This document shows positions 820 to 1,725 of a stretch of DNA of 64,000 nt, one piece after another. Made by a program: the position numbers and the translations under genes. Below the pieces are notes generated by a model. The model searched no databases. It was not told the origin of the DNA and saw only the letters and a program-made list of their open reading frames with translations. The stretch is from Eledone cirrhosa. Its lineage: Eukaryota. The stretch spans positions 370,574,001-370,638,000 of the forward strand of contig OZ024740.1 of NCBI GenBank assembly GCA_964016885.1, given 5' to 3'. How positions within the stretch are numbered: the stretch's first letter is position 1; each line of letters opens with the position of its first letter.

Positions 820-1725
820 TAAGTTGAAAAAAATGAAAACGAAATTTCATTTCTCACTCTTAGTATGGCACTTACTTAAATGTAAGTATGTATGTATACG
901 TACATACATATATGTATACAGACGTACAGTAGCATGCATATATATATATATATATATATATATATATATATATATATATATATATATATATATATATATA
1001 TATATATATATATATATATACATATATACATACAGGTACACATACATATATGCACGCATCAGTTTAGCAGACGTTTATTATAACGCCGCTTTGTTCGTTT
1101 GTTTGTCAACAAACCGAACAGCCTGAATTTATGCCATACGGTGTTAAGGCAACCACGTCACCTTTTTGTTCAACACTGACACACGAACGATGTACTAGTT
1201 TCAAGCTTGTTAGCTATCATCAGCACCGTTTACCCATCTGCCAGATAGTTGAACGTTCGAAAGTATATACTTTCCTTATGAAAATTAACGGCTGAGCAGC
1301 CTAATTTGCATATTGAGTGAGTTAAATCGGTCAGGCATACCGAAAACGATAAGTTGAAAAAAATGAAAACGAAATTTCATTTCTCACTCTTAGTATGGCA
1401 CTTACTTAAATGTAAGTATGTATGTATACGTACATACATATATGTATACAGACGTACAGTAGCATGCATATATATATATATATATATATATATATATATA
1501 TATACATACATATATACATACAGGTACACATACATATATGCACGCATCAGTTTAGCGGACGTTTATTATAACGCCGCTTTGAACAAAAAGGTGACGTGGT
1601 TGCCTTAACACCGTATGGCATAAATTCAAGCTGTTCGGTTTGTTGACAAACAAACGAACAAAGCGGCGTTATAATAAACGTCCGCTAAACTGATGCGTGC
1701 ATATATGTATGTGTACCTGTATGTA
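820..1725 (-). mobile_element. Non-autonomous hammerhead element, family A (partial tandem plus inverted end), in (TA)n
   Basis: 820-1090 is repeated at 1351-1580 (about 530 bp period); 1581-1725 is the reverse complement of about 1030-1172; flanked by (TA)n; contains a hammerhead. Confidence 0.8.
1186..1230 (-). ncRNA. Minimal type I hammerhead ribozyme
   Basis: Minus strand: aacggtg CTGATGA tagct-aaca-agctt GAAA ctag TA catcgtt; stems I and II pair; palindromic stem III. Confidence 0.85.

Follow-up and report, generated by a model that had tools for sequence, protein, structure and literature searches.

Why does the same octamer stand upstream of hammerhead ribozymes whose stems differ in sequence? 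In the window, that is, the whole stretch of 64,000 nucleotides of Eledone cirrhosa DNA that was analysed, a sequence-only reading had described four octamers in two families of tandem repeats and had taken them for the distal element of an internal snRNA-type promoter. All four octamers were located, and the order of the shared motifs, both hammerheads and the inverted site facing the octamer are present as described. We asked whether the octamer belongs to a promoter, and if so to which class, or whether it is simply one arm of an RNA hairpin.

Two sister families of tandem repeats

Families A and B are sister tandem retroelements with a unit of about 470 nt (466-472 nt in the reference units, 466-480 nt overall) and one type I hammerhead per unit. 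No LTR layout and no coding ORF was seen in the unit, and the anatomy of both families, as read from the sequence, fits that of the non-LTR retrozymes known from metazoans.

The family A insertion occupies positions 818-1740 (ends approximate) and consists of about 1.6 units on the minus strand (~818-1579) and an inverted segment (~1579-1740), with (TA)n at both outer ends. Its hammerhead lies at 1186-1230 on the minus strand, with a palindromic helix III (ACUAGU) and a stem I that reaches further out; cleavage is predicted after GUA, between 1193 and 1192. The family B insertion (9759-10430) begins with an inverted segment (9759-9802), continues on the plus strand with some 1.4 copies of a 466-nt unit and ends in (TA)n. 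The B hammerhead (10165-10209, plus strand), with predicted cleavage after GUU (10202), matches the Rfam model HH9 with 36.5 bits (E 1.4e-5), which is under the gathering score of 52. A further insertion, of subfamily A2, spans 47570-48537 (ends approximate), with a minus-strand segment to ~48263 and then an inverted plus-strand segment; its hammerheads are at 47791-47835 (minus) and 48424-48468 (plus).

The homology between A and B extends over the whole unit (268 identical letters in 498 columns, 61% of the ungapped columns). The octamer block, 10 nt long, is only one of eight exact runs of at least 7 nt in this alignment, in which about one run of at least 10 nt is expected by chance, so that the A-B pair alone fails to single the octamer out. 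The number of octamers in the 64-kb window is not above chance either (5 observed, 5.5 expected). The fifth octamer, at 37112, has neither a TATA box nor a hammerhead downstream and falls inside one of the broken LINE-like reverse transcriptase ORFs that we see at 26200-30990, 33669-37236 and 55779-63301.

Hammerhead stems and their covariation

The core CUGANGA, the GAAA, the NUH cleavage triplet and stems I-III are all present in 13 parsed copies from six families (four of them introduced below). Of the 13, 12 have a perfectly palindromic helix III, and such a helix has been described as the mark of the hammerhead form that works as a dimer (PMC4209133). In stems I and II, 7 of 16 pairs change on both sides, compared with 0-2 in slid controls. 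On paired cells and covariation score, 0 of 500 shuffles did as well, a count that is not a probability, given that the copies are related. The stem covariation, which had been called full, is therefore strong but falls short of that word: most copies of A begin stem II with U.U, and stem I contains a mismatch in the A2 copy at 47828.

The octamer belongs to a host promoter element

The octamer is part of a 12-mer, TATG[C/G][A/T]AAT[T/G]AG. In A it reads TATGCAAATTAG (1301-1312, minus strand, enclosing the octamer at 1304-1311) and in the B insertion of the window TATGCAAATTGG (10071-10082, plus strand), most B copies having TATGCAAATTAG; the two A2 copies carry it at 47906-47917 (minus) and 48342-48353 (plus). 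A TATA-like box, absent from the sequence-only reading, follows 41 nt past the octamer start in A (GTATATA, 1264-1270, minus) and 40 nt past it in B (GCATATA, 10112-10118, plus), and is GTATATG in the A2 plus copy. GTATATA is also the form of families C and D, and the variant GCATATA that of E and F.

How do these elements compare with the host's own small RNA genes? Three U6 loci (one tandem array), the top U6atac match and RNase MRP have the 12-mer at -76 to -78 and GTATA[A/T]A at -31. The same was predicted beforehand for tRNA-Sec, and both of its two top matches indeed carry TATGCAAATTAG at -79 and a TATA box at -32. The A 12-mer agrees letter for letter with the one that a U6 gene has at -77 and both tRNA-Sec genes have at -79; the match amounts to 12 of 12 letters in A and 11-12 of 12 in B, and the chance of finding 12-mer and TATA box in one unit is roughly 1e-5. 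On the other hand, both elements are absent from all six SRP rows, the 12-mer has at least 3 mismatches in every one of 25 U1/U2/U4/U5 promoter rows, and within 450 nt upstream the octamer occurs in only one of these 25, at -399. Since the 12-mer is found in U6-class genes and not in the Pol II snRNA rows, it is the proximal element of the Pol III type-3 genes of this genome and not a distal enhancer. The vertebrate-type distal sequence element has its octamer about 200 nt upstream; the element described here sits proximally, at -76 to -79, is characteristic of Pol III type-3 genes and has a TATA-like box after it. Thus the proposal of an internal snRNA-type promoter in the tandem unit receives strong comparative support, from the host genes and from four further families, while its label as a distal element was wrong.

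The proximal element is missing in 14 of 18 U6 rows and 5 of 6 U6atac rows. These rows have microsatellite or repeat flanks and were treated as retroposed pseudogenes, a reading taken from the flanks and by its reasoning partly circular.

The host promoters of U1, U2, U4 and U5 share three elements: AATTAA near -90, YCAGT between -55 and -58 and, near -30, a TATA-like tract. In carrying this tract, the Pol II snRNA promoters of this animal (loci L091-L105, L121-L130 and L253-L263) are unlike the TATA-less vertebrate type. Upstream of RNase P RNA (L138) the Pol III 12-mer is missing, but TCAGT is present together with TATA-like tracts, a hint that this gene may be transcribed in the Pol II manner here. 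In the U6 array (L112, L113), a SINE-like insertion of ~190 nt, with a few letters repeated, sits between the TATA box and U6, so that the promoter is displaced.

The promoter pattern identifies further hammerhead families

In this microsatellite-rich genome of 3.0 Gb the promoter pattern has 32,716 matches, and the reversed pattern has 25; for the exact hammerhead-core pattern the numbers are 39,989 and 7. Two sub-patterns of the promoter (1,062 and 283 matches) yielded four further hammerhead repeats, families C, D, E and F, the last known from two loci with a hammerhead at one. In these families, which were discovered via the promoter pattern, the 12-mer and TATA box persist while stems I-III differ from those of A and B and are fully turned over. 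Across all six families the 12-mer keeps 10-12 of its 12 letters, whereas the 3' regions of most pairs of families are at or near shuffle level.

The association was found from both directions. Loci chosen by the promoter only were followed by an A, C, D or E hammerhead in 29 of 30 and 22 of 30 cases (two sets overlapping by one locus), compared with 0 of 60 controls. Among loci chosen by the hammerhead only, a 12-mer with at most 2 mismatches was found in 23 of 30 for A/B, 17 of 25 for C, 12 of 30 for D and 14 of 25 for E (controls 0, 0, 3 and 0), and many of the loci without it are 5'-truncated or decayed. In the old family D the exact octamer remains in 3 of 30 copies and is lost as fast as the neighbouring letters, which indicates that the constraint acts on source elements only.

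Hammerhead-like cores of other families in the window have no 12-mer element within 250 nt upstream; their best 12-mer matrix score is 11.1, compared with 14.6-18.7 in A and B. The module therefore marks one clade and not hammerhead repeats in general. The cores in question are 5740(-), 7014(+), 7323(-), 11390(+), 11425(-), 11514(+), 11876(-), 16667(-), 16770(+), 17181(-), 18407(+), 48543(+) and 59494(+). Core 48543(+) directly follows an A copy, and the only 12-mer site near it is that of this copy.

Both loci of family F (L235, L240) show three octamer-like copies in a row upstream of the 12-mer. Five promoter-pattern matches lie outside families A-F (L223, L228, L237, L238, L239), four of them at U6-like spacing; they may be Pol III genes that lack annotation, for instance 7SK or Y RNA, or else further hammerhead families that have decayed.

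Fixed DNA element or RNA hairpin

Downstream of the 12-mer, families A, B and C have a partner site that pairs with it (1277-1287, minus strand, in A; 10095-10105, plus strand, in B); this is the inverted octamer-like site mentioned above. The pairing probability of the octamer is about 0.85 in A and B and 0.66 in C. In most families the TATA-like box also lies within a hairpin, with a stem differing by family, so that RNA structure shapes this region too. Potentially, the motif could thus be an RNA element, a hairpin or protein site for circle stability or reverse transcription, with transcripts supplied by read-through from the host, as a review proposes for retrozymes (PMC7761336), and with the likeness to U6 being a relic or chance. 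We consider this improbable. Across the 10 rows of an alignment all 9 octamer positions stay constant while the hammerhead stems turn over fully, so that free, compensated variation of the octamer, as expected of a mere hairpin, is not what we see; the partner arm departs uncompensated at three of these positions. The only double change, in C, concerns the position just after the octamer, and this pair can be counted for an RNA role, but the same position toggles between T and G in host promoters. In DNA contigs, two partner positions of A differ in about 54% of the depth and no octamer or TATA position differs at 5% or more, the family B variants being too few for gauging octamer conservation. 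Octamers without compensatory change, next to a partner that drifts, argue against a role in RNA only. Moreover, the octamer hairpin is missing in D and F and re-registered in E, and the 12-mer matches the host promoter in 12 of 12 letters. The distance from the octamer to the TATA box is nearly fixed (40-42 or 46), whereas that to the ribozyme core tolerates indels (80, 88, 92, 99, 100 and about 105 nt); A has 80 nt and B 92 nt, values that correct the earlier figure of about 75-90 nt. Another explanation makes the two inverted octamer-like sites a dimeric POU-factor enhancer, which would boost transcription begun elsewhere or act bidirectionally. Scored with the host 12-mer matrix, the partner read from the opposite strand does reach 14.1 in B and 9-10 in A, and the row of three copies in F would suit such an enhancer, but the partner drifts and accumulates mismatches, D and F do not have it, in A and B no TATA-like box comes after it on that opposite strand, and the host genes use a single proximal site. 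We regard the enhancer as even less probable than the RNA element. The inverted site is better read as an RNA pairing partner than as a second promoter. Read most simply, these sequences contain a DNA element that stays fixed, while its copy in the RNA is sequestered by pairing within a strongly folded circle, and the inverted site is likely kept because it pairs with fixed promoter letters in a highly self-paired RNA.

Which polymerase

With the host's type 3 Pol III promoters (U6, U6atac, RNase MRP, tRNA-Sec) the module has in common the 12-mer and the G-led TATA box. The distance between the two is 45-47 in the host genes; it is 41 in A, 40 in B and 42 in C, and only D (46) falls within the host range. 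In A, B, C, F and most E copies it is 4-7 bp shorter than in the U6-class genes, and after the 12-mer these copies have YCA where the host Pol III genes have CCT. This YCA(G) lies 24-26 nt before the G of the TATA box, the position it has in host Pol II snRNA genes. It is clear in A, where TCAGC (1291-1295, minus strand) starts 25 nt ahead of the TATA G, at the place of YCAGT in the U1/U2/U4/U5 promoters, and in F, and it is weak in B, C and D. The YCAG matrix score, computed for a match that was noticed after the fact, is 4.3-6.3 in A and 9.2 in F, with a 95th percentile of 1.3 among 116 TATA-like sites; B, C, D and the better E copies reach -1.7 to 1.9 (null p 0.07-0.19 for B, C and D). The AATTAA element scores 5.7 in A1, 3.7 in A3 and 2.4 in C and is negative in A2, B, D, E and F; in the host Pol II snRNA genes it scores 4.8-8.3 in 15 of 16. 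With its short distance and with AATTAA mostly missing, the module matches neither host promoter class fully.

In Drosophila, the downstream element of Pol II genes lies at PSEA positions 30-37 and the U6 TATA box at 34-41, hence 4 bp nearer for Pol II (PMC1761439), and human type-3 promoters are reported to recruit Pol II as well (PMC6023835). We favour use by Pol II, or a mixed use of it with Pol III, somewhat over Pol III alone, which nevertheless keeps a substantial share of our expectation. The plainest version of Pol III use, a U6-like type-3 promoter that makes each unit a short gene for Pol III, with its end at the T-tract directly ahead of the next promoter and with spread by leaky termination, appears rather unlikely to us as an account of the whole. 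It agrees well with a 12-mer that marks only Pol III type-3 genes in this genome, with a long 3' end that falls at or a few letters past the T-tract in A, B and C, and with family D, which has the exact U6 distance, a U6-like predicted start at T|G, at the base of the extended stem I, and a T6-7 run right after the ribozyme. However, D would then need read-through of its own T6-7, and in A, B, C and F the spacing falls short by half a helical turn. T-runs of at least 5, found in 40 of 40 units of B and in 18 of 31 of A, speak for Pol II; the other 13 of the 31 A units do not exceed T4, which counts against units that end at a T-tract. Most cores are still joined to their promoter (those reaching over the octamer are 70 of 100 in C, 41 of 48 in B and 68 of 82 in A), which means that the template RNA usually passes the T-runs.

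The 5' ends of truncated copies show no clear pile-up in the predicted start window (9 seen, 6.3 expected); a window picked after looking contains 15, with 9.0 expected. Directly past the TATA box, at offsets 48-63 from the octamer start in families A, B and C, there is one truncated 5' end where 11.1 are expected. Such a gap could stem from a hairpin, from bias in the alignment or from a start site that lies shortly downstream.

Copy number and insertion anatomy

The longest array has 31 B units and an inverted piece, and its end units are 99.8% alike. The 3' ends cluster at two sites per family, which hold 51 of 60 ends in A and 39 of 42 in B after removal of 18 A rows and one B row at the reference's own end as artefacts. 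The long 3' end lies 33-40 nt before the octamer, past a T-tract and a hairpin common to A and B; in the B insertion this hairpin occupies 9998-10037 (plus strand), directly before the fixed end (T-tract, then AT), and the region may be the site where reverse transcription starts. The short 3' end is 60-70 nt further upstream. Family C has the same long 3' end, at its own T-tract.

The 3' ends adjoin (TA)n in 33 of 78 cases in A and 33 of 43 in B (counted before the artefact rows were removed), and inverted 5' segments are found in 23 of 55 A clusters and 15 of 28 B clusters. Inverted 5' segments, partial tandems, a one-sided tail and a (TA)n target are described as marks of Penelope-like insertion (PMC8557442), and A and B show all four. 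Among 346 loci we found no autonomous partner carrying the terminal sequence of the unit, only scattered Penelope-like fragments. In the window, broken Penelope-like ORF pieces lie at 12475-14140, possibly from a relative of the mobilising element. We take them to contain RT thumb, cysteine linker and GIY-YIG-like motifs; a Pfam scan gave no family in three pieces.

The predicted folds of the circular monomers have z values of about -8 and -9 (25 shuffles each), to which internal (TA)-rich palindromes contribute. The fixed 3' ends together with the long arrays give indirect support to a circular RNA form, as far as sequence can. In sequencing runs labelled as three other organisms (X4, X5, X6) we see B-like sequence at low depth, and A-like sequence in two of them, either from related species or by carry-over.

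A proposed cycle

Our main reading, to which we give a probability of about 0.7, is that each unit combines a predicted hammerhead with an upstream 12-mer and TATA box of the host's U6 class, and that these act as an snRNA-type promoter with a start at the 5' arm of the ribozyme. Initiation would occur about 30 nt past the TATA G, at ~1239-1234 in A and at ~10143-10149, at the base of the extended stem I, in B. The transcript would run from one unit on through the promoter of the next, and two hammerheads, pairing via their palindromic helix III, would excise a unit-length RNA with the promoter inside, which would then circularise. A Penelope-like reverse transcriptase could start at the fixed site 33-40 nt upstream of the 12-mer, copy round the circle and insert tandem and inverted copies into (TA)n, with the promoter again ahead of a ribozyme. 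Retrotransposition normally leaves a gene-external promoter behind. In this cycle the excised RNA of one unit would include the promoter, and more than one turn of copying would restore it upstream of a ribozyme.

Beyond this, we tentatively suggest, as one of several possible histories, that a long-lived clade of circular-RNA retroelements captured the U6-class promoter of its host and re-spaced it by half a helical turn in most of its branches. The result would be a Pol II-recruiting hybrid, with a Pol III-type octamer block and the YCAG and distance of the Pol II type, that reads through T-runs.

Relation to known systems and significance

Metazoan non-LTR retrozymes are described by Cervera and de la Pena 2020 (PMC7229834) and in a review of the same year (PMC7761336) as short non-coding tandems with a type I hammerhead, a weak palindromic helix III and low GC, in arrays of up to tens of units, with a self-paired predicted circle and a proposed Penelope-like partner, and in all this A and B resemble them. 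The described units of 150-450 bp (PMC7229834; PMC7761336) are slightly shorter than the 466-480 nt found here. In the review's account, retrozymes seem to be without promoters or conserved motifs that point to a mobilising partner (PMC7761336), whereas A and B have a host snRNA-class promoter module, fixed 3' ends and Penelope-type inversions. Retrozymes are expressed as circular RNA, while the circle of A and B is predicted from sequence. The promoter of a plant LTR retrozyme is reported to have since been mapped (PMC12029980).

Newt satellite 2 (Coats, Zhang and Epstein 1994, as cited in PMC2220036 and PMC6765202) is, like A and B, a hammerhead tandem repeat with an internal snRNA-type promoter, in that case for Pol II. 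Compared by description, A and B differ in that the octamer is proximal and abuts a PSE-like region, a TATA-like box follows, and the signature is that of host Pol III type-3 genes. The newt layout is said to consist of an octamer and a PSE. The Sm-alpha SINE-like repeats of Schistosoma have an internal promoter of the tRNA type. In these repeats, as in A and B, the promoter is followed by the hammerhead and the upstream unit drives the next one, with Pol III given as the polymerase (PMC6765202). The promoter of A and B is instead a gene-external one of the snRNA class, made portable by the tandem and circular arrangement. The pLTRs of Penelope-like elements, as far as they are described in PMC8557442 and PMC4209133, resemble A and B in several ways: the palindromic helix III of the hammerhead, the partial tandems, an inverted copy that is truncated at its 5' end, a tail on one end only and (TA)n targets; A and B differ from them in having no ORF in the unit and a tail of ~60-70 nt instead of 30-40.

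With the Pol II case of the newt and the Pol III case of the schistosome, the principle of promoter-bearing hammerhead repeats is already known. In the accessible papers that were searched, we found no published U6-type promoter in a retrozyme and no description of families A-F. What appears to be new, and is well supported by sequence comparison, is a U6-class promoter module in a retrozyme, defined against the host's own genes. To our knowledge, the newt case of a promoter-bearing hammerhead repeat has stood largely alone.

The finding bears on how animal retrozymes reach high-level transcription, and the candidate promoter comes with a predicted start site. If the proposed cycle is true, it would show how an upstream promoter, which retrotransposition normally leaves behind, can travel with the element; if the hybrid is real as well, it would have left more than 30,000 snRNA-class promoters in this genome. 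The series of families, D on the one hand and A, B, C, E and F on the other, constitutes a set of natural variants for studying the choice between Pol II and Pol III. As a by-product, the U6-class and U1-class promoter elements of this animal have been defined, which is useful for small-RNA expression tools.
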